This document shows positions 1,675 through 40,497 of a stretch of DNA of 42,969 bases, in pieces. The translations under genes were made by a program, and so were the position numbers. The notes beneath the pieces were generated by a model. That model saw only the letters and a program-made list of their open reading frames with translations. It was not told the origin of the DNA and ran no database searches. This DNA is from a virus. Each line of letters begins with the position of its first letter. The first letter of the stretch is position 1. Location: IMG/VR virus record IMGVR_UViG_3300044726_000065, positions 1 through 42,969 of that record. The stretch is one strand, 5' to 3'.

Positions 1675-2334
1675 CTAATATTCATACTTGCTCTTTTGCG
1701 GGTAAAGTTCATTTAATAAATTCATCATCTGCATCCGCATCCCGTTTGGCCCGGTTGAAAAGAAAGTCCTGTCCTTTATTCTGTCCTCAATCGCCATCTT
1801 TGACATTGGATGATTTATTTTGCAGTCGGTAATTTCTTCCCCTTCTGAATCAACGAACGCTGCGCTTTTGATAATGTATTCATGGCTGCCCCATTCCAAT
1901 CGAAAAACCCTGTGTATCTGGTGGTTGGTAAATACGCATGGAAAATGCGTATCAAAATACCTAACATCTCCAAAGTGGTCGATAGTGTTTCTAATTGCTG
2001 TATAATACTTTCCCGTTGCATTGTTGAGAGCTTCTTTGAGTGTCCCGTGATACCAGTTTTTGATTTCATTTATGTGAAGTGGTTTTAAAAGGAAATGATC
2101 ATCATTGAACATTATAAACTTATCGTCTTTTACCTGGAATAGTTTTGAAATGATGTTTAACTGCTTTCTACTTGAAACATCCGAGTGATAAATGATTTTA
2201 CCTCTGTACCAATCAGGAGTTTTATCAGTAATTAAAAACACTTCCTCGTATCCTGTCAGGTATTTTTCAATAGACCTTAGGCAGAATTTTAATTCATCTC
2301 CTTGTGTGTGTTTATAGGGAATAAATATTATCAT
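1675..2334 (-). CDS. Putative GT-A-like glycosyltransferase (family not identified)
   Basis: 219 aa with N-terminal beta-strand IIFIPYK and a DxD-like FNDDHF. It is the first gene of the sugar-modification cluster. The assignment rests on weak motifs only. Confidence 0.4.
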   Translation of the reverse strand: MIIFIPYKHTQGDELKFCLRSIEKYLTGYEEVFLITDKTPDWYRGKIIYHSDVSSRKQLNIISKLFQVKDDKFIMFNDDHFLLKPLHINEIKNWYHGTLKEALNNATGKYYTAIRNTIDHFGDVRYFDTHFPCVFTNHQIHRVFRLEWGSHEYIIKSAAFVDSEGEEITDCKINHPMSKMAIEDRIKDRTFFSTGPNGMRMQMMNLLNELYPQKSKYEY

Positions 2335-2585
2335 TCGGTTGTTATTAACTGATGCCTTTTTATAACGGTTGTTTTGCCTGTTGATACTGTTTTTTCATAC
2401 TCCGTTCTGCCTTCGCAATTACTCCAATAAATAAAATCCCCTGCATCTCTAAACCGATACATTTTACATCCATCCTTTTCAAAAATTAGTTCAATTGTAA
2501 AATCTCCATCTTTGGTACTTTCCTTTGCGTCACCCTTACAGGCCGATATAAAACAAGCAACAATAAAAATGATTATATATTTCAT
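2331..2585 (-). CDS. Small lipoprotein
   Basis: 84 aa with signal peptide and lipobox MKYIIIFIVACFISAC-KGD. A 4-nt overlap with the downstream gene suggests coupling. Confidence 0.55.
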   Translation of the reverse strand: MKYIIIFIVACFISACKGDAKESTKDGDFTIELIFEKDGCKMYRFRDAGDFIYWSNCEGRTEYEKTVSTGKTTVIKRHQLITTE

Positions 2586-2588
2586 AAA

Positions 2589-3383
2589 TTATAAATTTTC
2601 ATAAATCATGTTTGCTACTGCTGAATAAGTGTAAAAGTCTTTAAAGATTTCTTTACCCAATTCTGGCATTGGGTTATAGTTTCCTATAAAATGATTTAAA
2701 TAGAAATTAATATCTGAATCCAATGCCTTAACACACCCTTCATTAAATAAAAATTCATCACTTATATAAACCGGAACCGCCCCATATTGTAAAGCCTCCT
2801 GAATCCTAAAACTTGTTTTACCGTAACCTCTTGGGCATAAGACGAATTTACTCATTGACATTATCTTGCAGTAACTCTCTAAACTCGTTCTTTCTGTGCT
2901 GATAAAATATCCGTCTTTATCTTTTAATTCCTTAACTAATCTTTCTCTTATCGGATGAGTGATTGCCCCAATGAACGAAGCAAATATTGGCCTTCCACAT
3001 TCTTTGAACTCGTACTTATGAGGCTGGCAAACTAAAGGTAGTTGAACATCTCCTTTACAACCCATGCCGAAAATCTTTACATCGGCTCCGTGCATATTGA
3101 AAAGAACTCCGTCATCGTGCTGGCAAAGAATTGCGTATTTTTTTTTCTTATCTAAGTTCTGAAAATACTCATCAACCTTTCTTCCTGTTCTTCTGTTCCT
3201 TATTAGTTTGTTTAATTCTGTCGTGAGGATAGGAAGAAATATCCGGTCTGATTTGTTTCGTGATGGATCGTAGTTATCTAAAAACCACTCTTCAAACGGA
3301 ATTTCGTTGTCAGGCGGGTAGTGTTTAGTTTCCCTCGGACGAAGGAAGTCTGTATTTTGTAATGTTATCATGCGTATTCCCAT
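2589..3383 (-). CDS. Exostosin-like (GT47 family) glycosyltransferase
   Basis: The C-terminal region [16 protein letters not shown]...[33 protein letters not shown] matches the conserved exostosin-domain pattern (C-P-R-G...S-x-R-x-x-E-A-L-x-x-G-x-x-P-V). Confidence 0.7.
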
Positions 3384-3949
3384 TTAAACCCGTAAGCTGT
3401 ATTTATTTTTCCCTTCGCACACTTGCAAATATTAGGTCTATTAAAACCAAGCTCCCTTTGAACATCATTAATACAATCCCATTTTCTTATAAAGTTACCC
3501 GTTGAATCCTTTTGTATAATAGAAATTGCTGTTGGGCTTTCCTTGCCAACTTGTTTTAAATAGAAATAATCTGGAGCTTTTTTTGACCCTATTTTATAAG
3601 CGTGAAGTATGTTTTCTGATTGCGTACACCACTCTAAATTTTCAACATTATTATTTGATGGGTTGCCGTCAATGTGATTTATAAATGGTTTGCTTTCTGT
3701 GTTGTCTATAAAAGCAATAGCGACTAATCTATGAACTGGGAAGAACTTGCCAAAGCCATACTTATGCAAACACACCTTACAATACCCTGTTTTACCCGGC
3801 TTTGCAGAAATCAACTTGCCCTTTCTGTGTATGGTTATATTATTTCTGATAGGTGATTTGACTTCCCTTCTCACCGATCTAATATTACCAAAATTACTGA
3901 CCTGATAAAAGCCCTCGTAATCTTTAACGTCTTTCCATGTTTCTATCAT
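3368..3949 (-). CDS. HNH homing endonuclease (NUMOD4 + HNH_3 type)
   Basis: NUMOD4-like [24 protein letters not shown] core [29 protein letters not shown]-terminal [19 protein letters not shown] module. Free-standing between two sugar-modification genes. Confidence 0.85.
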
Positions 3950-4560
3950 AATAGTGTTTTTCTAATGTATAACGCATCCCCGAAACCTTTCCTTTTCCAC
4001 TTCGTTTCAACCCTTCTAAAATCTGTTAGGTAATTATCCAAGTCCTCAACCATTGCACAATTCTCGTAAAGCTCTTCCCTGTTTACTTCGGTATAGATGT
4101 AATCAATGTGCTTTAATGTTTCGGTTGCGCCTTTTAATACTTCATGCTCGTAGCCTTGCACATCAAGCATTAAAAAGTTGCAGTTAGTTAATGCGACATT
4201 GTCCAACATAATCATCAATGCCCTTTCTACATCTTTAAATTCTATATCTGGGTAGTATAATAAATGTTGCTTTGGTTTAAGTATTGAATTACTTTGCCCG
4301 TTATTTTTTGTTTCTACATTAAGATAAGCCTCAGTACAAGATGCCCCTAACGCAAAGTTGTGTGTGTATATTCTATCAAAATCCCAAGACTTACTTAATA
4401 GTTTTTCATAACTATCCTCACATGGTTCAAACAAATGCAATTCGCCATCCGTTACACTTAACAATAAATCAACCTCCTCTCCCCAATGCGCACCAGCTTG
4501 GATAACTCCAGTTATCTTCATTCCATATTTAGCAATTAACTTTTCTAACTTAAGGAGCAT
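3946..4560 (-). CDS. FkbM-family SAM-dependent methyltransferase
   Basis: 204 aa. [11 protein letters not shown] (SAM loop-like) and [17 protein letters not shown] match the Methyltransf_21/FkbM pattern. Confidence 0.7.
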
Positions 4561-4565
4561 ATATT

Positions 4566-5150
4566 TTATTTATAGTAACTGTGATCATTTAATGGCTCAT
4601 GGATGAACGCTATCTTATCCTCGTATAAATCAAAAGGGAAATTAAAATAAAGGCTTTTGTACTTGGACGTAATTGGATCGTTTGCCTTTTGTAACATTGC
4701 AAGCATTGTGCTATTATACCACATATCCTGTCTATAAAATGCCTCAGTATTACATTGTAAATCTTCCACAACATAAAGTTTTGTAGACCCCACAAGCCCG
4801 TAATAGGTCATTAACTGATGCCTTGAATTATGACTTCCGTCATCTACTATAAAGTCAAACGGCCCGAATAATCTAACATTATCAAGCACCTTACTATCGG
4901 CCTGATTTCCCCTGAAAGCAGTAAACCAATTTTCCTTTATAGGTTCATGTTCGGAAAAAAGGTCTATCCCAAAGATGTGAGCCTCTGGATAAACTTCATG
5001 CCACATCTTTATACTTTCAGAACGGTGAACACCAATTTCTAATATCTTATTTACTGATTCCGGCAAGTGTTTAGCGTAGTATTTCGCATAGCCATGATCG
5101 TTTTTATCAGTATCATATTTTGGCATTATGTCTATAATTCTTTCAACCAT
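4566..5150 (-). CDS. Class I methyltransferase-like protein (sugar O-methyltransferase/CmcI-like pattern)
   Basis: YDTDKNDHGYAKYY...ILEIGVHRSESIKMW...IFGIDL...FDFIVDDGSH...YVVEDL follows the family pattern. The glycine-rich SAM loop is degenerate (GVHRSES). Confidence 0.6.
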   Translation of the reverse strand: MVERIIDIMPKYDTDKNDHGYAKYYAKHLPESVNKILEIGVHRSESIKMWHEVYPEAHIFGIDLFSEHEPIKENWFTAFRGNQADSKVLDNVRLFGPFDFIVDDGSHNSRHQLMTYYGLVGSTKLYVVEDLQCNTEAFYRQDMWYNSTMLAMLQKANDPITSKYKSLYFNFPFDLYEDKIAFIHEPLNDHSYYK

Positions 5151-5701
5151 AAATTTAATTCTAACATTATAGGTTTACAATATTCGTCAACTGCTTTTTT
5201 TACTCCTTTGAATGTGTCGTAGTCGTGACCAAGTAAAGCCCCTCCTGGTCGGATTAATTTTGAATAGTGTTCTATTTCCCATTTAACCATGTCGTAAGTA
5301 TGTAGACCATCAAGGAAAACAAAATCAACCATTTCTTCATCCCATGTTTCTTTTCTTTCCGATAAATAATAATACCCGTCTTTACTATCTAAATATAGAT
5401 GTTCAAAAGCCCTAAACTTATATAGTCTATTGTAGGTCTGTTTTTTTAGCCTATCATAATCATCTTGGTCAAATAGCCCCGGCATATCAGGATAATACTT
5501 GTAAGGATCAACACAAATCAGTTTTTCTAAATTGCATTCAGTTAGTAAATGATTCGCACAACCACCGTAAGCAGTTCCAATCTCTATCCCGGTTTTATAC
5601 CCTTTTGAGTTTATGTAGTTTGATAGTTGCCAGTAGTAACAATGAAGTCCTACGGCAGTATCTTCGCCCATCATTCTCGTTAAGTCTTCGTCTGTTCTCA
5701 T
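5132..5701 (-). CDS. Class I SAM-dependent methyltransferase (Methyltransf_24-like)
   Basis: GIEIGTAYGGCANHLL (motif I) plus VDFVFLDGLHTYDMV and IRPGGALLGHDY. Confidence 0.7.
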   Translation of the reverse strand: MRTDEDLTRMMGEDTAVGLHCYYWQLSNYINSKGYKTGIEIGTAYGGCANHLLTECNLEKLICVDPYKYYPDMPGLFDQDDYDRLKKQTYNRLYKFRAFEHLYLDSKDGYYYLSERKETWDEEMVDFVFLDGLHTYDMVKWEIEHYSKLIRPGGALLGHDYDTFKGVKKAVDEYCKPIMLELNLWLKEL

Positions 5702-6012
5702 TTGCCGCCTTTTTTAATTGATTGAATCCATGCCTTTGTTGGGTTGTAATAAAAAACCTTTGTTGCCCAAAATACTTGCCCTCTTTTAAATTCCTTGCCC
5801 TCAAAATTAAATCCTAAACAAATGCCTATGTCTGGATTTATTATAAAACCTCTTATAATCGAATCCCTGTTTTTCATTTGTTCAATATCTGATTTCATAT
5901 CATCACTAATACTAATTAAGACAACTTCATTTGGTTGCAAATATCCGTATTCGGCAATTTCGTTATTTGTGAGTGTAACCACATCGTAATTATATTTTAC
6001 AACCTCATTCAT
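5698..6012 (-). CDS. Hypothetical protein
   Basis: 104-aa ORF tightly packed between a methyltransferase and the fucosyltransferase gene. No motif recognised. Confidence 0.5.
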   Translation of the reverse strand: MNEVVKYNYDVVTLTNNEIAEYGYLQPNEVVLISISDDMKSDIEQMKNRDSIIRGFIINPDIGICLGFNFEGKEFKRGQVFWATKVFYYNPTKAWIQSIKKGGK

Positions 6013-6013
6013 A

Positions 6014-6757
6014 TTAAAACATTATTTGTGCCCATTGTTTAGGAATTAATTCGCCTGTAAAAATGTGCTGGTTATCTTTCCCGTACCACTTTGAATGATG
6101 CGGCGCAATTACATTATCACTTCCTGAAAGATACGCCGCCGTCCATGAATAAGTGCTATTTGCTATCACATGAAATTTATAAGTTGTCATTCTCAACCAT
6201 GTTTCAAGTGGGTCACCCCCTATTATAAATTCGTCCATATTGCCAACGAAACTCTTAGAAACATCTTCATCGGAAAACACATGACAAGGTAAAGGGCATT
6301 CTTTAAAGTGCCACTTTTCATAATACTCTTTCGGAAGCATAGGCCACTTAGTCGGATACTTCGCATAGTCACCCCTTCTTACATGAACGCAAACAGCATC
6401 TATTTTTTCTTTCGGTAAATTAAATGCTTCAATCAACTCTTTTCTATACTCATCAAAGTAATTAATATTTTGATACCAACCGTGCAAACGCATATTCTTT
6501 CCGGTAAAAGGTAGTGGTTCATAAGTCCACCCGTCTTGCCTGTGTTCAACTTCAATCTTTGCTTCATCTTCAGGAGTAAGTAACGGAAAAAAATCAAAAG
6601 GGGTTTGCTTTGTGTACTTGGATCTGTTGTAAGATGGAATTTTATACTCTACTCCATTGCGCCAAGCATGGGAAATAGCCGTCATTATCTGCATACAATT
6701 ATTGCCCAGCCTTCCGCTTAACGCAACTGTTATAAATGGTTTTAAATGTGGCTCCAT
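6014..6757 (-). CDS. Alpha-1,2-fucosyltransferase (GT11 family)
   Basis: GT11 signature motifs are present: LSGRLGNNCMQ (N-terminal), VCVHVRRGDY (HxRRGDY) and HVIANSTYSWTAAYL (SNSTFSWW-like). Confidence 0.85.
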   Translation of the reverse strand: MEPHLKPFITVALSGRLGNNCMQIMTAISHAWRNGVEYKIPSYNRSKYTKQTPFDFFPLLTPEDEAKIEVEHRQDGWTYEPLPFTGKNMRLHGWYQNINYFDEYRKELIEAFNLPKEKIDAVCVHVRRGDYAKYPTKWPMLPKEYYEKWHFKECPLPCHVFSDEDVSKSFVGNMDEFIIGGDPLETWLRMTTYKFHVIANSTYSWTAAYLSGSDNVIAPHHSKWYGKDNQHIFTGELIPKQWAQIMF

Positions 6758-7272
6758 ACTCTTCTGTGTAAAATATCTTTTATGTGGGTTAGACTTAAAT
6801 TAAATTCTTTAGCAAGTTTCCAGCAGCCGTATTTACCCGGAATATATTTGCTCCTTATTTTTAATACTATTTCATTTGTAAGTTTTGCTTTGGGGTGATT
6901 TTCTCCTTTGTTGTCTTGTAGCCCTATAACAAATGAATGCTTTGAGTTTTCAGAATGCGTACACCATTCAAGATTCTCAAGCCTATTGTCAATCTTATTA
7001 CCATTTTTATGATTTATACACCTGTAGTTGTTTGGATTTGGTAGAAACGCTAAAGCAATTAGCCTATGAAGTGTTTTTGTTGTGCCGCCTATGCTTATTG
7101 AGGCATAGCCACACCCATCTGTATGACCCAGTATAAAAATTCTGTCTTTCCTTATTGCGTCTGTTCCGTATCTGGTCTTGTATTTTTTGCCAATAGATTT
7201 TATTCTCCCAAAATTGCTTACTAGATAACAAGATTCGTATCCGGGGATATTTTTCCAAATTTCTGTATTCAT
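6742..7272 (-). CDS. HNH homing endonuclease (NUMOD4 + HNH_3 type)
   Basis: WKNIPGYESCYLVSNFGRIKS and INHKNGNKIDNRLENLEWCTHSENSKH. The start is taken at ATG 7272 (MNTEIWK). The tracked 208-aa ORF carries an implausible N-terminal extension. Confidence 0.85.
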   Translation of the reverse strand: MNTEIWKNIPGYESCYLVSNFGRIKSIGKKYKTRYGTDAIRKDRIFILGHTDGCGYASISIGGTTKTLHRLIALAFLPNPNNYRCINHKNGNKIDNRLENLEWCTHSENSKHSFVIGLQDNKGENHPKAKLTNEIVLKIRSKYIPGKYGCWKLAKEFNLSLTHIKDILHRRVWSHI

Positions 7273-7401
7273 AAAAACATTACGCCCCAATGCAGAAGAC
7301 TTATCGCCGCTACCATGAGGGAGGAACGCAACTACACCGGGGCTTAAAGTTTGAAGTAATTTTAGCATGATAAGACGATAAGTAATGCTAATATAGTAAA
7401 C

Positions 7402-8133
7402 TTATTTTAATAAACGAATTTTTTCTTGCAGCTCGTTTGCTTTTTTCATGTTGTATTTATGACAGCCGTTTAGCCAACCGCTTCCAGAATGTTTACGATG
7501 ATGATAACGCATTCCAGGTACAACGTAAAAAGCATTTCCCGCTTCTAACCACAAAGTATTGAAATAAATAGTATCGCTTTCCTTAATTGATTCATCGTAC
7601 TTGTAAACCCTTAAATATTCATCACGGTTCACAACGTAATTACAATTATTCAATAAGCATCTAAACTCTGCCTTGTGCAAAAAATCCTTTGCGTTACTGC
7701 TGTCTATTATCATTCCGTTCCATCGTGAGTAATCGTGTTCCGGTTCTGCTAAAGATGGGTGAAGAATGAAATTCTTTCCAAGCTGGCTTTTACTAAAATT
7801 GAAGTTAATGGCTATCGCTTCCAAATACTCAAGGTAAAGTTCGTTGTCTGAATCAAATAAAATAACCCATTCGTTTTTAGCCTTACTTATTGCTTCACGT
7901 TTATTCCGTAACATCCCCAAATTCTCTTTGTTTTTATGTACCCTTATTTTCCATTCAATCTTACCTTGCTGAAATTTAGAAAGTATTAATAGTAGTTCGG
8001 TATATTTTTCTTCGTTACTCGCATCGTCAACAATTAAGATCTCATCAATTAAAGGATGGTCATAAACCTTTTCAAAGACTTCCAGAACCATGTCTGACCT
8101 GTTGTAAGTTGTTATCGCTAAAGTTAGTTTCAT
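7402..8133 (-). CDS. Family 2 glycosyltransferase (GT2, GT-A fold)
   Basis: LTLAITTYNRSDMV...ILIVDDASNEE...ILFDSDNE are the classic GT2 N-terminal motifs, including DxD. Confidence 0.8.
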   Translation of the reverse strand: MKLTLAITTYNRSDMVLEVFEKVYDHPLIDEILIVDDASNEEKYTELLLILSKFQQGKIEWKIRVHKNKENLGMLRNKREAISKAKNEWVILFDSDNELYLEYLEAIAINFNFSKSQLGKNFILHPSLAEPEHDYSRWNGMIIDSSNAKDFLHKAEFRCLLNNCNYVVNRDEYLRVYKYDESIKESDTIYFNTLWLEAGNAFYVVPGMRYHHRKHSGSGWLNGCHKYNMKKANELQEKIRLLK

Positions 8134-20775: not shown

Positions 20776-21192
20776 ATGTCAACTATACCGAAAGAGATAA
20801 TGGAGATTTGGATGCCGCTAATTGGTTTTGAGGGGTTATATAAAGTAAGCGATTTCGGCAGCCTTACTGCTTTAGAGAAAACGGCAAAAGGATGGGGCAG
20901 CGAATATATTAGACCTGAACAGCCTATTAGTTGCAGCACTAACGGGGACGGGTATAGGCAAGCCACGATAACTGGCAAGGATGGCATAAAGAAAACGAAA
21001 TATGTGCATAGGATGGTAGCTGAAACTTTTATTCCTAACCCAGATAATAAGCCGTGTATTAACCACAAAGACGGCAACAAAAATAATAACCATGTAGAAA
21101 ATCTTGAATGGGTTACGGTTGCCGAGAACAACGAACACGCAATTAAAACAGGTCTTAATAAACGTAAAAGAAAAAAGCATGAAAACGCATGA
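20776..21192 (+). CDS. HNH homing endonuclease (NUMOD4 + HNH_3 type)
   Basis: IGFEGLYKVSDFGSL and INHKDGNKNNNHVENLEWVTVAENNEHA. Confidence 0.85.
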   Translation: MSTIPKEIMEIWMPLIGFEGLYKVSDFGSLTALEKTAKGWGSEYIRPEQPISCSTNGDGYRQATITGKDGIKKTKYVHRMVAETFIPNPDNKPCINHKDGNKNNNHVENLEWVTVAENNEHAIKTGLNKRKRKKHENA

Positions 21193-21619
21193 AGAAATGT
21201 TCCATTACATTAACCGTCTTAGTATGCACGGTGAACATTGGGACGAGTACGATACAAAAAGAGAAATCAAAGATTTTAAAGACTGGACTAACCAACTTGC
21301 AACCGATGGGCGGGAAGAATTGGAAAAGGAATGTGAAATAAAAATTAACGCAACCATTCAAGCTACTAAGGATTATTTAAAATCAAGAGAACTGGAGTTA
21401 GAGGAACTAAAAGCCGAGAATAAAACCCTTCAAGACGCTTTCGATAATAATTTAAAAGAAATTATGTTATTAGGAACTCATGCAAAAGACTTGGAAGCCG
21501 AGATTGAAAGGCTAAGCGGATTGTTGGTTTCTTTATCAAACGGTGAAGCCATGAATGTAGTAAGAGAATCAGAAGGGGTTTATAGTGTAATATTCAAAAC
21601 GCCTAAAAAGAACCCTTAA
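21179..21619 (+). CDS. Hypothetical coiled-coil protein
   Basis: Start taken at ATG 21179 (MKTHEEMFHY...). The long heptad-like region ELELEELKAENKTLQDAFDNNLKE is coiled-coil-like. The 3' end converges on and overlaps the endolysin gene by 17 nt. Confidence 0.5.
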   Translation: MKTHEEMFHYINRLSMHGEHWDEYDTKREIKDFKDWTNQLATDGREELEKECEIKINATIQATKDYLKSRELELEELKAENKTLQDAFDNNLKEIMLLGTHAKDLEAEIERLSGLLVSLSNGEAMNVVRESEGVYSVIFKTPKKNP

Positions 21620-22181
21620 ACTTCTGATACGCCGCCGCTAACTTCTCATCGTACTTATTCGCCTTGTAACCAGATCCGTTATAAACCTTCGCAAATCCCG
21701 CCCAATCCTTACGCTGAAGTTCATCAACCAGGTTCTTACTTTTCACAAAGTTTATAAACGCAAACAAGTGCTGATCCTCGTCAATGTGCATAGCCGCAAT
21801 AAAAGCATCTAAGGTCGCAAATCCTGAAGCAGCCCAATTATAACCCATTATCTGAAACCGCCCCCAACTGGCAGAAGAAAGGGCAGCATCTTTGTTTATC
21901 GCTATTGCCCGTTTTAAACGCTCAGGTTGGGCTGAAGTTTTACCGTACTTTCCGGTTGTCCAATTCTTATAAAGGATGTCTGAAGCCCCTGTGATGCTTT
22001 CAGGGGATATTCCACGTTTAAGTAGTTCTTGCCAAAAGACATGAGGTTCAAAAAGGATCTTCGGATGACCGGTAGTAAGGAACCCATCACCGGAGCTTTC
22101 CACTTCAGCAACGGCTTTAATTACGGCTGGCTCCACCCCTAAAAGTGCTGCCGAATCTTCAAACGCCTTTTGAGTTATCAT
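21603..22181 (-). CDS. Endolysin, N-acetylmuramidase family (PF11860-like)
   Basis: LGVEPAVIKAVAEVESSGDGFL...PKILFEPHVFWQ...SWGRFQIMGYNW...FINFV matches the conserved pattern of the phage N-acetylmuramidase family. Confidence 0.75.
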   Translation of the reverse strand: MITQKAFEDSAALLGVEPAVIKAVAEVESSGDGFLTTGHPKILFEPHVFWQELLKRGISPESITGASDILYKNWTTGKYGKTSAQPERLKRAIAINKDAALSSASWGRFQIMGYNWAASGFATLDAFIAAMHIDEDQHLFAFINFVKSKNLVDELQRKDWAGFAKVYNGSGYKANKYDEKLAAAYQKFKGSF

Positions 22182-22392
22182 CTTTCATAGATTTTAAAGT
22201 TGCTATGGCTCCGAAAATTCCACCCACGATAACTTTTAAAAGGTCTAACAAAGCCGTCCTGACCGCAACCGCCCCTTCTGTTGGATTAGCTGACCCCTTA
22301 AAGATAATGCCGCCTACCCCTATTAAAATGCTTACAGCGACACTAAAGGCAAGCATTAATAAAACCCACTCCCCTGCATTGAATTTTTTCAT
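22159..22392 (-). CDS. Holin-like small membrane protein
   Basis: 77 aa with two hydrophobic helices (WVLLMLAFSVAVSILIGVGGIIF; IVGGIFGAIATL). Overlaps the endolysin start. Confidence 0.5.
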   Translation of the reverse strand: MKKFNAGEWVLLMLAFSVAVSILIGVGGIIFKGSANPTEGAVAVRTALLDLLKVIVGGIFGAIATLKSMKDDNSKGV

Positions 22393-22406
22393 TTAGTAAA
22401 TATAAT

Positions 22407-22451
22407 AAAAAATGACAAAGCCCCGAACCGATTGACGTTATTCGAGGCTTT
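22407..22451 (-). terminator. Intrinsic terminator of the tmRNA-like gene
   Basis: On the minus strand AAAGCCUCGAA-(13 nt)-UUCGGGGCUUU forms 11 bp with one G:U, followed by GUCAUUUUUUAUUAU. Confidence 0.65.
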
Positions 22452-22680
22452 GAGAATTAGGCGGCTGCTCTCTGAGCAACGGGCTGATTCATTTTTATGA
22501 CTTTTGCGTCATTTATATTTAACAATTTCCTCTTGCAAGAATGTAATCTGCTGTCAAAACCAAACATCCCCACCGGAGTTACCCGGCTCAAATGGAAATT
22601 AAACCCGGTGGAGATGACCGGAATCGAACCGGTGTCCAACTGATACTACTCAAACAAGTCTTTATCGGAAAGAGCTTGCA
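22417..22680 (-). ncRNA. ssrA: Circularly permuted (two-piece type) tmRNA-like gene: acceptor piece, intervening loop, then coding piece
   Basis: Read 5' to 3' on the minus strand:
- GGAC followed by T-arm ACCGG-TTCGATT-CCGGT (22633..22617).
- Acceptor 3' strand CATCTCC, then A, then CC (22616..22607).
- A spacer of about 35 nt.
- GGGGATGTTTGGTTTTGACAGC (from 22571), a tmRNA 5' consensus that pairs with CATCTCC with G3:U.
- P2a-like pairing of CAGCAGATTAC (22553..22543) with GTAGTATCAGTTG (22649..22637).
- GCA (22507..22505) opens a frame AKVIKMNQPVAQRAAA ending at TAA 22459..22457.
- An 11-bp terminator hairpin follows. Confidence 0.75.
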
Positions 22681-22681
22681 T

Positions 22682-22697
22682 CAAATATACAAAATTA
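22682..22697 (-). promoter_or_regulatory. Tandem Bacteroidota -7 boxes (TAATTTTG, TATATTTG) upstream of the tmRNA-like gene
   Basis: The minus strand reads ggaTAATTTTGTATATTTGatgcaagc. Both octamers fit TAnnTTTG. They lie just after the stop of the upstream spanin-like gene. Confidence 0.5.
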
Positions 22698-23207
22698 TCC
22701 TATTGGTGATTTAAACTTTCCCACTACTTTAAAGACAGTAAACGCCGCAGCCCCGCCGATAAGTAAGGCAATCCACAGCCATCGGGTTTTGGCTTTCTTT
22801 TTCCATGCATGCATGCTATTTTCAAGCTCTTGATTTTTAGTAAGTAACACGGTATTGTTCTTTCCGCATGCTAATAAACCGAGCTGTAATCGTTCTTGCT
22901 CTGCTCGGTTCTCCCTGTAAATAATAGAATCTCTCCAGATAGTTTTGGTTACGACTTTAGTTTTATGGTCTGTTATTCTTATTGTATCGTTTGTACTTGT
23001 TGTATCGTAGAATTGAATTAACTCCCACAAAGTATCGGTTTTTGTTTCATAGACAATAACCGAATCTGCTTTATCTGGGAACTTTTCAGCGCATACTTCT
23101 GCGGTAAATTCAGGATGTTTAAATAAGTATAGCTGAGTTTTTTCAAGCTGCCGTTGCGCCTTGTTACATCCAAAAAGAAAAATTGCTATTATCAAATACT
23201 TTGTCAT
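22695..23207 (-). CDS. Putative unimolecular spanin (N-terminal lipoprotein signal plus C-terminal TM helix)
   Basis: Lipobox MTKYLIIAIFLFGC-NKA (Cys14), a coiled-coil-like centre and a C-terminal TM WLWIALLIGGAAAFTVFKVV. This is the architecture of T1 gp11-type u-spanins. Confidence 0.5.
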   Translation of the reverse strand: MTKYLIIAIFLFGCNKAQRQLEKTQLYLFKHPEFTAEVCAEKFPDKADSVIVYETKTDTLWELIQFYDTTSTNDTIRITDHKTKVVTKTIWRDSIIYRENRAEQERLQLGLLACGKNNTVLLTKNQELENSMHAWKKKAKTRWLWIALLIGGAAAFTVFKVVGKFKSPIG

Positions 23208-38188: not shown

Positions 38189-38848
38189 TTATGGGTAAAC
38201 CTCTATCTGGACTAAAATTTTTGCTCCTACATCGCTTAAATCAACATTGCTTCCGTCTGAGTTTTGAATAACGGTTATATCTACAAAATTGCCGCCCCCG
38301 CTTACTGTCATCTGGTATGAAAAATCCAATGGTGTGCTGCCGTAGAAGGGCAGCCAACAAGAAAGCCCACTTGCAAATGGCGGAACGGCTGTTTTGTTTA
38401 ATGTAAAAGCACCAGCAAGTGTCCCTCTATAAACACCGACTCCGGTACGTGTCCATACAATAGCCCCTATTGTGTTTATAAACTCCGCCTCAACAACCGG
38501 GGCATCCGTTCCCGATTGCGATAAATCAGCTTTATAAACCAAAGGCGCAGAACCATCCCCGCCGGGGGTACCTGGAGCCAATCCCGGAAACATCGCTGTT
38601 ATCTGTGTTTCAAAATCATCCTGCGAATCCATCGGAGTGCCATCAAAATCTATTTCCGTAATTAGGATGTTTAAAAACTCAATTGTATTAATGAAGAATG
38701 AAATTCTATTTTCATCTTCTGGTAAACTCCAGCTTATCGCTGTTGATGTATTATGAAAAGACGCAACAGTATTCTCCACTTGCAAAGAAGTGTTATCTGT
38801 ATGAATCAAGTTTATAACATCTCCGTTTGTTCTGAATGAATAAGTCAT
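38189..38848 (-). CDS. Hypothetical head-module protein
   Basis: 219-aa ORF between the MuF-like and protease genes. No motif recognised. Confidence 0.5.
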   Translation of the reverse strand: MTYSFRTNGDVINLIHTDNTSLQVENTVASFHNTSTAISWSLPEDENRISFFINTIEFLNILITEIDFDGTPMDSQDDFETQITAMFPGLAPGTPGGDGSAPLVYKADLSQSGTDAPVVEAEFINTIGAIVWTRTGVGVYRGTLAGAFTLNKTAVPPFASGLSCWLPFYGSTPLDFSYQMTVSGGGNFVDITVIQNSDGSNVDLSDVGAKILVQIEVYP

Positions 38849-40497
38849 TAGATTGTTACGACCCTCCCCTGTCTGATTTGATTAGGAAATATTACGCTTG
38901 TACTTCTTCTTTTAGGAATTAACCGCCCCCTTGAATCTCTTTTAGGTTTAAGCGACATTTGACACCGGCAGTTGGAAATGTGGATGCCATTTGCTAATAT
39001 TGCACCTGTTAACGTACTAAAATCATAAACATGACCAGAAAAATCACGTTCAATAACTTCGGCGATCTCGTCAAAAGATACACTTCCGGCATTTCCATAA
39101 AGCAACTTTCCGATGAAATTGGAATCGCCCGGGACACTATTAAGAATAGATTTATATCTGCTGGAATTCCAATTCGTGGACGTTCCGATGCTGAAAAACT
39201 TAAATGGTCTCAAATGAGTATCAGCAAGCGTAAGAGACAAGTTGCCGCTGCTCATAAAGCTACTAATGGAAGAAGTGTCTCTACCAGCGAAAGAGTTTTG
39301 AGAGCAAATGCTGCGCACAAAAATCCTTTCAAGATGGGAAGTTTTGAGGCTGAACTTGCCAATATCCTGAACCAACATTTCGTCGCTAAACTCCAATTCC
39401 CAATTCATGTCTATAACATCGATATTGCTATCCCCGAACTTAGAATCGCCATTGAAGTCCAAACCAATGGACATTCTCTTTTGAGAACCGAAAGAATCAT
39501 TAAGCGTTCTAAATACATTTGCGGCCAAAACTGGTTCCTTCTCTATGTAATCATCAACAGGGATAAGGCCAATGCTGTTAGCCTTTTTAATATTGCTCAA
39601 TACATAATCGCCTTTTCTAATGTCCTTAATAGGGATAGTTCCCCTTTGGGTAAATACGGTATGATTGGGCGTGAGGGTAAGTCTTTTGCCGGAACGTGTT
39701 ACGATTTCAAAGACTTGACCAGAGTATTTTAAACGTTGCGCCCCTATCATTTGCCCTTCAACCAATGTATCACCCGGGAAACAGTTAATTGTGCTTTCTG
39801 CGCTGGCTCTTGGATCACCGGGACTTCTTAACCTGTCACCGTTTCTTGGGTCAATAAACACATCTTCAAAGTCTATAACTGTCCCGTCAAGTCCAATGTG
39901 CGAAGCATGGTCTTTAGGATTCACCCCTCTTGTTCTGTTATCATGTACCGCAATCCACTCCTTTTGCATTTGATACTCGTAAGTTTCACCAGCCGCTAAC
40001 GTACCCGCATTTGTCGCAGCGTTGACCTCTGTCCTTACTATTCGTGCCGCTTGCATTTCGCTAAACTGAGAACCTTCTAAAGCCCTCACGGTTTCATCAA
40101 CTCCCCATCCTTTACTTATTGATTCATTGAGTACGGATAATAAAAATTCCCTTGTAGTTCTGTTTACATTAAAAGTGAGGTTTTGAATCAGGTGAGTCCT
40201 TAAGTAATTTAATATCCAATTCACCCACTCAGAATTAAACCCAAAGGCACCGCCTGACTTTCGTTCCTGTTGTTTTAATTCCCTCGTAGTCTTATTGGCG
40301 TACCTCACCCCCACAGTTGAATAAAGTTGTTGTATAGTAGCAGTTAGTTCTGGATTGGTCAAATCATTACTTAGTGCAGCAATAGCCGCATTAACTCCTA
40401 AGTTTTCGACAATAGAAATAGTTTCATCGAATTTCTTTTTGATGGTCTTGTGAACCTTCGGGAAGAACAATGTTTCGTATTTCTTGTTTAGATTCAT
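38848..40497 (-). CDS. Head morphogenesis protein (SPP1 gp7/Mu F-like) interrupted by an intein
   Basis: The exteins carry the MuF pattern (ARIVRTEVNAATNAG...HIGLDGTVI...; ...STIN | CRCQ, where NCRC is the conserved family motif). Residues 239..509 form a Hint-type intein. Confidence 0.8.
   Translation of the reverse strand: MNLNKKYETLFFPKVHKTIKKKFDETISIVENLGVNAAIAALSNDLTNPELTATIQQLYSTVGVRYANKTTRELKQQERKSGGAFGFNSEWVNWILNYLRTHLIQNLTFNVNRTTREFLLSVLNESISKGWGVDETVRALEGSQFSEMQAARIVRTEVNAATNAGTLAAGETYEYQMQKEWIAVHDNRTRGVNPKDHASHIGLDGTVIDFEDVFIDPRNGDRLRSPGDPRASAESTINCFPGDTLVEGQMIGAQRLKYSGQVFEIVTRSGKRLTLTPNHTVFTQRGTIPIKDIRKGDYVLSNIKKANSIGLIPVDDYIEKEPVLAANVFRTLNDSFGSQKRMSIGLDFNGDSKFGDSNIDVIDMNWELEFSDEMLVQDIGKFSLKTSHLERIFVRSICSQNSFAGRDTSSISSFMSSGNLSLTLADTHLRPFKFFSIGTSTNWNSSRYKSILNSVPGDSNFIGKLLYGNAGSVSFDEIAEVIERDFSGHVYDFSTLTGAILANGIHISNCRCQMSLKPKRDSRGRLIPKRRSTSVIFPNQIRQGRVVTI
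38971..39783 (-). mobile_element. Intein (271 aa) in the MuF-like gene
   Basis: Block A CFPGDTLVEG (Cys1 codon 39783..39781). Block B TPNHTVFT. Block F GHVYDFSTL. Block G ANGIHISN, followed by +1 Cys (Asn codon 38973..38971). Inserted exactly in the NCRC motif. The central 130 or so aa lack LAGLIDADG or HNH motifs. Confidence 0.8.
39031..39732 (+). CDS. Antisense ORF inside the intein: HTH plus Vsr/DUF559-like PD-(D/E)XK endonuclease (putative homing endonuclease)
   Basis: 233 aa, lying wholly within the intein on the opposite strand. Contains HTH-like SIKQLSDEIGIARDTIKNRFISAGIPIR, basic NUMOD3-like repeats, and a core SFEAELANILNQHFVAKLQFPIHVYNIDIAIPELRIAIEVQTNGH...KRSKYI...NWFLLYV that fits the E...Q...Y-x-(I/V)-D...IEV-x(3-4)-H nuclease pattern. 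Confidence 0.6.
   Translation: MTRKITFNNFGDLVKRYTSGISIKQLSDEIGIARDTIKNRFISAGIPIRGRSDAEKLKWSQMSISKRKRQVAAAHKATNGRSVSTSERVLRANAAHKNPFKMGSFEAELANILNQHFVAKLQFPIHVYNIDIAIPELRIAIEVQTNGHSLLRTERIIKRSKYICGQNWFLLYVIINRDKANAVSLFNIAQYIIAFSNVLNRDSSPLGKYGMIGREGKSFAGTCYDFKDLTRVF

Follow-up and report, generated by a model that had tools for sequence, protein, structure and literature searches.

A compact, circularly permuted tmRNA gene in a Bacteroidota-type tailed phage

Transfer-messenger RNA (tmRNA), encoded by ssrA, is nearly universal in bacteria, and permutation of its gene is thought to have arisen in three bacterial lineages. Classical two-piece tmRNAs are encountered in Alphaproteobacteria, some Betaproteobacteria, and Cyanobacteria, and are represented by the Rfam models RF01849, RF01850, and RF01851, merged in RF04321. 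This paper describes a gene with the same order of pieces, and with a tRNA-like domain likewise drawn from two predicted RNAs, on the minus strand of IMG/VR virus record IMGVR_UViG_3300044726_000065, of which the whole stretch from position 1 to 42,969 was analysed (42,969 nt, below called the window, whose numbering is used for all positions). It is very probably a genuine phage-encoded circularly permuted tmRNA gene, belonging to a widespread family of compact, pseudoknot-free two-piece tmRNAs in Bacteroidota phages.

Phage tmRNAs have long been known (PMC4131195), and isolated phages have yielded 53 unique two-piece calls by ARAGORN, mostly from marine phages, with Cellulophaga phage phi4:1 listed as permuted in Table S1 of that survey (PMC9004378). 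Because such genes have already been counted there, a phage-borne permuted tmRNA is not new in itself; the earlier note on this DNA had called the locus unusual, which holds for the compact permuted form on a Bacteroidota-type phage and not for permuted tmRNAs in phages at large. The genes of marine and aquatic phages (Melnitz, pelagimyophages, cyanomyophages, and Caulobacter phiCbK-like phages) are phage-borne and unaccompanied by a phage smpB, as here, and have been proposed to maintain or reprogramme ribosome rescue in infection (PMC9004378). Those genes are close to the tmRNA types (alpha, beta, or cyano) of present or former hosts, whereas the family described here is much smaller and Bacteroidota-like. 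For Bacteroidota, a genome survey gives 24,380 standard against 48 permuted tmRNA genes among 29,415 genomes, the latter typed as 18 alpha, 23 beta, and 7 cyano (PMC11915505, Table S2). The same source describes RF04321 as built from the merged alpha, beta, and cyano seed alignments, and reports as unique the case of a nominally archaeal metagenome-assembled genome (MAG) in which a tRNA-Ala lies between the two pieces of a permuted gene (PMC11915505). A search of the literature outside subscription journals returned no description of a compact tmRNA family in Bacteroidota phages; as far as found, neither the family nor its architecture, tag, and host association has been described in that literature, and its individual members are detectable and probably already present in databases.

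Identification and fold of the window gene

ARAGORN, one of the checks that the earlier note had named, returned a permuted tmRNA ('tmRNA*') at 22366..22698 (-) with the tag DAKVIKMNQPVAQRAAA* as its sole call across the 43-kb window. The merged model RF04321 tmRNA_permuted (Rfam 15) was likewise the sole above-threshold match (22457..22666 (-), 55.4 bits, E = 3e-8, gathering threshold 47 bits), and the alignment spans the whole model (positions 1-213). The covariance-model check thus succeeded with the merged model and failed with the lineage-specific ones: beta_tmRNA RF01850, run at relaxed thresholds, reached 44.5 bits against a gathering threshold of 84 bits, on the tRNA-like domain alone (model positions 81-162), and the alpha (RF01849) and cyano (RF01851) models scored lower than beta on the window and were suppressed by clan competition. 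The resemblance to tmRNA is far above chance.

On one strand, the 3' tRNA-like half comes first and the 5' half second, with an intervening sequence between them, so that the gene runs from an acceptor piece through the intervening sequence and a coding piece to a terminator hairpin after the tag (Table 1). The elements previously read as a tRNA-like 3' half, i.e., GGAC, the T-arm ACCGG-TTCGATT-CCGGT, and CATCTCC-A-CC, are all present on the minus strand. The coding piece begins GGGGATGTTTGGTTTTGACAGC, and its first seven bases pair with CATCTCC, G3·U included, as had been proposed. In the resulting tRNA-like domain, the acceptor stem comprises 7 bp and includes G3·U70, the T-arm loop is of the UUCGAnU type, and the discriminator is A, after which CC is encoded and the last A of CCA is not. 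The spacer, put earlier at about 35 nt, is present and measures 37 nt; it does extend the acceptor helix, to 13 bp in the predicted precursor hairpin (RNAfold -23.3 kcal/mol).

Folding of the two pieces together, another of the proposed checks, brought out the closing helices. The P2a pairing CAGC/GUUG plus AUUAC/GUAGU, which the earlier note had drawn, was returned by duplex folding as well as by an unconstrained co-fold, and the co-fold joins the pieces through an intermolecular acceptor stem and an irregular P2 helix of ~18 bp; from there, an unpaired A/U-rich stretch of ~21 nt leads to the resume codon. The first pseudoknot (PK1) was not found, with only this ~21-nt linker to hold it and no conserved paired segment in the family alignment, no dedicated pseudoknot tool having been run; nor was any structure seen 3' of the tag beyond a single hairpin, either in the co-fold or across the family. 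These results agree with the pseudoknot-poor form anticipated for the gene.

The post-tag hairpin comprises 12-13 bp and a 13-nt loop with the family motif ACGUCAAU, and is followed by a U-run; by the RNAfold model it is an intrinsic terminator, as had been suggested, and a simple terminator scan missed it because of the 13-nt loop. Throughout the family, a homologous hairpin stands after the stop codon (~22413-22448 in the window). Its loop reads GCGAAA in most members and ACGTCAA(T) in the window, L074, and L140, and the kept motif suggests a role beyond transcription termination.

The tag frame, read as AUAUAAAU|GAC GCA AAA ... GCA GCC GCC UAA, ends ...VAQRAAA-UAA (stop 22459..22457) and has the expected Ala-Ala-type terminus. 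The earlier assignment of GCA (22509..22507) as resume codon was not sustained: ARAGORN and the family alignment place resumption one codon upstream, at GAC (22512..22510), where the window reads AUAAAU|GAC at the position of the relatives' AUAAAC|GGC or GAC. Relatives of the GAC type carry tags DAKIVSM... and DNKVIKL..., and GAC is probably the resume codon, with GCA as the alternative.

Two tandem TAnnTTTG boxes just upstream of the acceptor piece are candidate Bacteroidota-type -7 promoter elements. That the gene has such boxes of its own, as the earlier note held, is correct; the promoter argument built on them is weakly supported, as the motif is not enriched across the window (45 found against 58 expected). 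Among the 31 family members, six carry a TAnnTTTG box 33-58 nt upstream of GGAC against ~0.7 expected at the background rate, a figure that is weak evidence because the positional window was widened after seeing the data; the initial, narrower one gave 2/31 (p = 0.15).

A family of compact permuted tmRNAs and its affinities

A generic permuted-tmRNA pattern detected 16 IMG/VR loci (L001-L016), all of classical alpha- or beta-type appearance, in which the longer form and a PK1-like segment are kept (by eye), and none of which is like the window gene. A search with the distinctive 5' end GGGGNTG..GGTTTTGACAGC returned at least 120 viral loci, for which ARAGORN called 36 permuted genes among the matches listed; the others are one-piece genes, many with Bacteroidota-type tags (GENNYALAA and similar). 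The permuted relatives encode tags like that of the window, including GKVIKMRPNAQLKVAA, GKIIKMTTPQLKAAA, GKSIKMSDQSLRMAA, and, five times, GKTINFSNAPLRAVA. After de-duplication, the family set consists of 31 distinct sequences among the matches listed, the window and 30 others. A stricter family pattern matched 37 IMG/VR contigs, and a metagenome scan yielded further members, including closer relatives of the GAC subtype; the tags closest to that of the window are DAKIVSMDFRPMRVAV (L183) and DNKVIKLNSDAKVAA (L174), both of that subtype, and GKVIKMRPNAQLKVAA (L086).

The family is defined by a 5' end GGGGNUG..GGUUUUGACAGC, a P2 arm and (G)UUUGGAC in the acceptor piece, AUAAAN|G[GA]C ~60 nt from the 5' end, a K.I.M-type tag ending [AVT]A, and one post-tag hairpin. 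Alignments and leave-one-out profiles place the window gene within it: the coding pieces align from the 5' end over the AUAAAN|GGC (or GAC) resume context to the stop codon, and hidden Markov models (HMMs) built with the window excluded detect its coding piece at 22571..22454 (E = 9.4e-12 at full length) and its acceptor piece at 22640..22608 (E = 2.6e-8). RF04321 scored 60.7-73.1 bits on six relatives tested, and 45.1 and 38.2 bits, under the threshold of 47, on two copies in bacterial genomes (L140 and L147); the beta model RF01850, which appeared in the output for two relatives, reached 37.6 and 52.7 bits (threshold 84). An exact search of IMG/VR with the 5' end and intervening sequence of the window gave no match, and BLASTN against GenBank phages gave none with the window gene as query and only generic T-arm or 5'-end matches with the relatives as queries. 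The Cellulophaga phages Calle and phi40:1, matched in these searches, were rejected as members, their genes being one-piece. No isolated phage carrying the family was found by BLASTN of GenBank phages, Cellulophaga phage phi4:1 lying outside that comparison.

Pairing within the tRNA-like domain is maintained by compensatory change. In an alignment of constructs with the intervening sequence removed, four of the five T-stem pairs show compensatory changes and as many as five pair types are seen at a single position; acceptor position 5 occurs as CG, GC, UA, and AU, and G3·U70 is present in 30/30 aligned sequences. Over the T-arm, the acceptor stem, and the first three P2a pairs, 99.3% of cells are paired, and 58 cells show double changes, against 17.6 +/- 3.5 in shuffles (0/500 reach 58) and 0-6 with the partners slid. 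Given an alignment based on sequence alone, RNAalifold returned the T-arm and acceptor stem and not P2, whose strands are shifted out of register by indels; cognate and non-cognate duplexes were compared instead. Coding pieces pair better with their own acceptor arms than with those of other members (P2a -5.6 vs -3.7 kcal/mol; distal region -10.8 vs -8.2), with a permutation p of ~2e-4 that is not corrected for relatedness among the sequences. Duplex energies and the co-fold of the window pieces agree that acceptor-stem and P2 pairing hold the mature pieces together.

The tag is conserved as a peptide. The family tags supported by homology and ARAGORN all end in Ala, encoded by GCA in 11, GCT in 8, GCC in 7, and GCG in 5; the residue before it is A in 23, V in 6, and T in 2, the one before that is hydrophobic, and the modal length is 15 residues; the pattern GK.I.M...[RK].[AV]A and the resume context AUAAAN|G[GA]C are conserved. 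The synonymous Ala codons together with this pattern indicate selection at the protein level. For the terminal Ala itself, the rule used to pick tags demanded that residue, so ARAGORN's own calls constitute the unbiased evidence. The rule mis-set four members (L054, L057, L074, and L139) to an upstream GCC codon, and ARAGORN and homology were used there.

Several points weigh against assigning the window gene to this family as a functional tmRNA, besides the uncorrected relatedness and the tag-picking rule already mentioned. PK1 is absent, though important in E. coli tmRNA, with only ~21 nt from P2 to the resume codon; the tag ends RAAA and not the canonical LAA; and the nearest relative of the phage lacks the gene, which must thus be dispensable. 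No smpB was found in the phage, and function therefore hinges on compatibility with host SmpB. Moreover, the 3' motif of the window is AGTTGGAC and that of its relatives GTTTGGAC, and the family-specific part of the coding profile alone gives E = 0.035 on the window; because of this last value the window gene is regarded as a divergent family member, which also deviates from the others in encoding CC.

Compared with the classical two-piece tmRNAs, the family shares G3·U70, the T-loop UUCGAnU, the precursor hairpin that extends the acceptor stem, and the Ala-Ala tag end. It differs in having UUUUGACAGC at the 5' end and GUUUGGAC in the 3' half, in place of UUUCGACAGG and UUCUGGAC, in lacking PK1, in its single post-tag hairpin, in usually leaving CCA unencoded, and in its tag family. 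The one-piece tmRNAs of Bacteroidota and the reduced ones of Cellulophaga phages (Calle, phi38:1 type) share with it the 5' end GGGGNUG..GGUUUUGACAG and GUUUGGAC followed by the T-arm at the 3' side; these genes are unpermuted, measure 320-420 nt, have structure between the tag and the 3' tRNA-like half, and encode tags of the GENNYALAA type (host-type) or long, acidic ones (phage).

These likenesses were counted for 3'-half characters lying outside the search patterns for the family and the one-piece genes; the pattern for the classical set demanded CC after the discriminator, so that only the third base of CCA was free there. GU[UA]UGGAC precedes the T-arm in 24/31 family members and 20/21 Bacteroidota-type one-piece genes, and in 0/11 classical permuted genes. 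CCA is encoded in 2/31, 1/21, and 8/11 of these sets, respectively, and UUUCGAC, present in the 5' end of 10/11 classical genes, occurs in 0/31 and 0/21 of the other two. The family has GUUUGGAC, UUUUGACAGC, and an unencoded CCA in common with the one-piece Bacteroidota-type tmRNAs and not with the classical permuted genes. The AGTAGGTA motif is found in 10 family members and in two phage one-piece genes (L037 and L119), where it stands after GACAGCA. Profiles of the variable P2 strand and acceptor arm, by which the family was to be placed, gave noise only (E > 10), and the affinity consequently rests on the discrete characters of the tRNA-like domain. They are compatible with derivation from a Bacteroidota-type tmRNA or with adjustment to Bacteroidota factors; in neither case does the family seem to derive from the permuted alpha, beta, or cyano lineages.

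A broader reading is offered tentatively, at somewhat below an even chance: the family may be a fourth, independent permuted lineage that arose in Bacteroidota phages, crAss-like phages included, from a Bacteroidota-type one-piece tmRNA and was cut down to a pseudoknot-free two-piece form of ~225 nt with a conserved phage-specific tag (GK.I.M...[RK].[AV]A). The N-terminal half of that tag might let the phage decide what becomes of the host proteins that carry it, in place of ordinary ssrA degradation, and the intervening sequence would be a landing site for tRNA genes, in which case the RNA would mature within phage tRNA arrays. If this holds, the family would be an independent case of RNA gene permutation, in a phylum whose own tmRNA is one-piece, and the smallest tag-encoding tmRNA architecture so far, reduced to tRNA-like domain, P2, tag, and one hairpin, a minimal form that bears on the long-standing problem of pseudoknot function. 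A further implication would be that many phages of Bacteroidota, crAss-like ones among them, use a tag of their own to intervene in ribosome rescue, which can be tested in Cellulophaga, Flavobacterium, or Bacteroides systems. tmRNA databases could give the family a model of its own instead of filing its members under alpha, beta, or cyano.

The intervening sequence varies from 17 to 241 nt and its length is not conserved; at least 11/31 family members have tRNA genes within ~400 nt. Complete tRNA genes lie within the intervening sequences of L058 (Glu), L082 (Met), and L111 (Ala), the last in the same arrangement as the gene of the nominally archaeal MAG (PMC11915505). The motif GCTAACCCGTCGCGTTAGTACGGT recurs in the intervening sequences of L074, L079, L104, L120, and L129, and GGTGGTGGAG in those of L029, L072, L125, L140, L058, L110, and L097. 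The latter is complementary to the acceptor 3' strand CTCCAC and might pair with it as a stand-in acceptor helix while the 3' end of the acceptor piece is processed.

Further phage one-piece tmRNAs were encountered in the IMG/VR loci L025, L033, L066, L073, L081, L093, and L108. They mostly measure 323-381 nt by ARAGORN (one 481 nt), shorter than the host type, and carry long, conserved tags (AEDIMSIPTSLTRG...ELA[FIL]AA; DNTIVVRMNQELRLSA), so that they appear to form further phage-specific families.

Proposed mechanism and competing explanations

From the layout and folds we infer the following course. Transcription, started at a TAnnTTTG-type promoter of the gene itself or running on from the late operon, would give a precursor of ~260 nt that ends at the post-tag hairpin and U-run. 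Host tRNA-processing enzymes would remove the 37-nt intervening sequence, with RNase P cleaving 5' of G22571, and 3' trimming and the CCA-adding enzyme would finish the ACC-A end after A22609 (predicted end ...CAUCUCCACCA plus a non-templated A). Cleavage into two RNAs is what the helix-extending intervening sequence and the whole tRNAs inside it in three relatives would lead one to expect, as processing of those tRNAs would itself generate tmRNA ends. The acceptor piece (~60 nt) and coding piece (~165 nt) would stay joined through the 7-bp acceptor stem and the irregular ~18-bp P2. Host alanyl-tRNA synthetase would charge the RNA via G3·U70, and host SmpB and EF-Tu would bring it to stalled ribosomes, on which translation would resume at GAC (or GCA), append (D)AKVIKMNQPVAQRAAA, and stop at UAA. 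The ribosome would thereby be freed and the product marked with a phage-specific tag ending in Ala-Ala. A plausible benefit to the phage is that ribosomes are kept available amid host mRNA degradation or ribosome-stalling defences.

Extreme reduction, as seen here, is also known from the RNA of mycobacteriophage DS6A, which consists of the tRNA-like domain only, and from mitochondrial tmRNAs; these are without the tag frame that the window family keeps. A decoy action has been proposed for the DS6A RNA, and a molecule of this kind is reported to inhibit tmRNA in E. coli (PMC4131195, PMC11915505). The window RNA, once produced and perhaps charged, could in the same manner titrate host SmpB or occupy stalled ribosomes and so inhibit host trans-translation, with an incidental tag frame, and both the lack of a detected smpB in the phage and the loss of all pseudoknots would suit such a role. 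It is nevertheless unlikely: the family keeps the tag frame as protein, from the resume context and the N-terminal GK.I.M through a modal 15 residues to a C-terminal [hydrophobic]-A/V-A written in four synonymous Ala codons, and a pure decoy would not maintain a tag.

Far less probable still is a functionless relic of a host ssrA, left as the core of a phage attachment site (attP) or as a fragment from imprecise excision. In its favour are the frequent use of tmRNA genes for integration and the occurrence of ssrA fragments in phages (PMC9004378, PMC4383910), as well as the absence of the gene from the nearest relative, L017. The segment, however, holds both halves in permuted order with a complete tag frame and a terminator; Bacteroidota-type one-piece ssrA genes measure ~395-400 nt and have GENNYALAA-type tags, and the window gene is therefore no copy of one; no integrase was found among the 24 window open reading frames (ORFs) scanned; and the same architecture recurs with compensatory changes in unrelated phage contigs.

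That the mechanically called 60-aa ORF, present under table 11 with a TTG start, encodes a small lysis-cassette protein and resembles tmRNA by coincidence can be dismissed, since it begins within the GGAC/T-arm junction, shares the tag frame only by extension, lacks an ATG start and a Shine-Dalgarno motif, is not kept in frame by the relatives' intervening sequences (17-241 nt, not multiples of three), and lies in a region matched by two independent RNA detectors (ARAGORN and Rfam). The ORF is the tag frame extended upstream; on this reading of its sequence it is not a gene, as the earlier note had judged, and should no longer be called by annotation pipelines. The explanation favoured over all of these remains the tag-encoding permuted tmRNA.

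Phage context, host, and neighbouring genes

The features of the locus and its neighbours are compiled in Table 1.

Table 1. Position of the tmRNA gene elements, the overlapping ORF, and adjacent genes in the window
Feature	Position	Strand	Content	Evidence
Upstream neighbour	22695..23207	-	170 aa, hydrophobic C-terminal segment	Query that found the syntenic relative L017
Two tandem TAnnTTTG boxes	22697-22690, 22689-22682	-	TAATTTTG, TATATTTG	Sequence and motif match
Acceptor piece	~22666..22609 (5' boundary approximate)	-	22609..22666: 5' arm (P2 3' strand), GGAC, T-arm ACCGG/TTCGATT/CCGGT, CATCTCC, discriminator A (22609)	RF04321 alignment start 22666, ARAGORN, acceptor HMM, T-stem covariation
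Mechanical 60-aa ORF	22457..22639	-	TTG start; tag frame extended upstream through P2 strand, intervening sequence, and T-arm	
Intervening sequence	22572..22608	-	37 nt; ends CCGG / CCGGT	Excision predicted from known permuted tmRNAs
Coding piece	22571..22407	-	GGGGAUG, D-loop analogue UUUGGUUUUGAC, P2 5' strand, ~21-nt A/U-rich linker, tag ORF, hairpin and U-run	ARAGORN, Rfam, coding HMM, co-fold
Tag reading frame	22457..22512	-	(D)AKVIKMNQPVAQRAAA	ARAGORN tag, family alignment, C-terminal Ala conservation
Post-tag hairpin	22407..22448 (+/- ~2 nt)	-	CAAAGCCUCGAA ... UUCGGGGCUUUG, then UCAUUUUUU	RNAfold
Holin-like protein, downstream	22159..22392	-	77 aa, hydrophobic	Pfam/PHROG searches
N-acetylmuramidase endolysin, downstream	21603..22181	-		PF11860 E = 1.5e-62; PHROG endolysin families

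The window represents a tailed phage, with a small terminase-like gp3, a portal, and an HK97-type capsid protein (Pfam, PHROG), and has a G+C content of ~37%. A contig from the Logan assembly of run SRR35358091 matches it. Its Bacteroidota-like character, noted earlier, was borne out: a Shine-Dalgarno-like motif (at least a 4-mer) stands upstream of only 3/60 genes, which is the background rate, the nearest isolates of the portal are Cellulophaga and Flavobacterium siphophages (~28% identity), and the family members in bacterial genomes are confined to Bacteroidota. Taken as sequence evidence, this points to a host of Bacteroidota type. Pfam scans of 24 window ORFs, the smaller ones not all covered, detected neither an SmpB nor an integrase domain, in agreement with the earlier note's remark that smpB is absent.

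A scan of GTDB with one genome per species gave 13 pattern matches, of which four have a proper tmRNA 5' end, all in Bacteroidota; the nine others lack the GGGG 5' end and were rejected as chance. The genuine copies are those of Flavobacterium caseinilyticum AT-3-2, a Prolixibacteraceae MAG, a Bacteroidales MAG, and a Draconibacterium MAG. The copy in F. caseinilyticum (L140) lies in a tRNA array adjoining a protein with a Crassvirus muzzle-protein C-terminal domain; this may be a crAss-like element integrated into the genome of a cultured Flavobacterium isolate. The array occupies about 2400-8000 of NZ_SMFM01000002.1 (862 kb), and one of its tRNA matches covers 111 nt and may contain an intron.

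The earlier placement of the gene inside the lysis cassette is right for the window, where endolysin and holin-like genes follow directly downstream, and does not extend to relatives. In the closest IMG/VR syntenic relative, L017, the upstream protein is 81% identical, and no tmRNA stands at the matching locus, the upstream gene being directly followed by another small membrane protein and another endolysin; the RNA gene is for this reason regarded as accessory and its lysis-cassette position as not conserved. Set against window positions 21603-22700, L017 has at 6400-7200 a non-homologous small membrane protein and a different endolysin that replace the tmRNA, the holin-like protein, and the muramidase, which indicates exchange of the whole module at the lysis locus.

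Elsewhere in the window, a MuF-like head-morphogenesis protein (38848-40497 (-)) contains an intein (Pfam Intein_splicing and Hint, residues ~253-495), and three ORFs resemble NUMOD4 plus HNH_3 homing endonucleases (3368-3949 (-), 6742-7368 (-), and 20776-21192 (+)). Finally, a run of glycosyltransferase and methyltransferase genes (1675-8133 (-); Stealth CR2, GT47-like, FkbM methyltransferase, Methyltransf_24, GT11, and GT2) is unusual in so small a siphophage, and its function may be to modify glycans or DNA.

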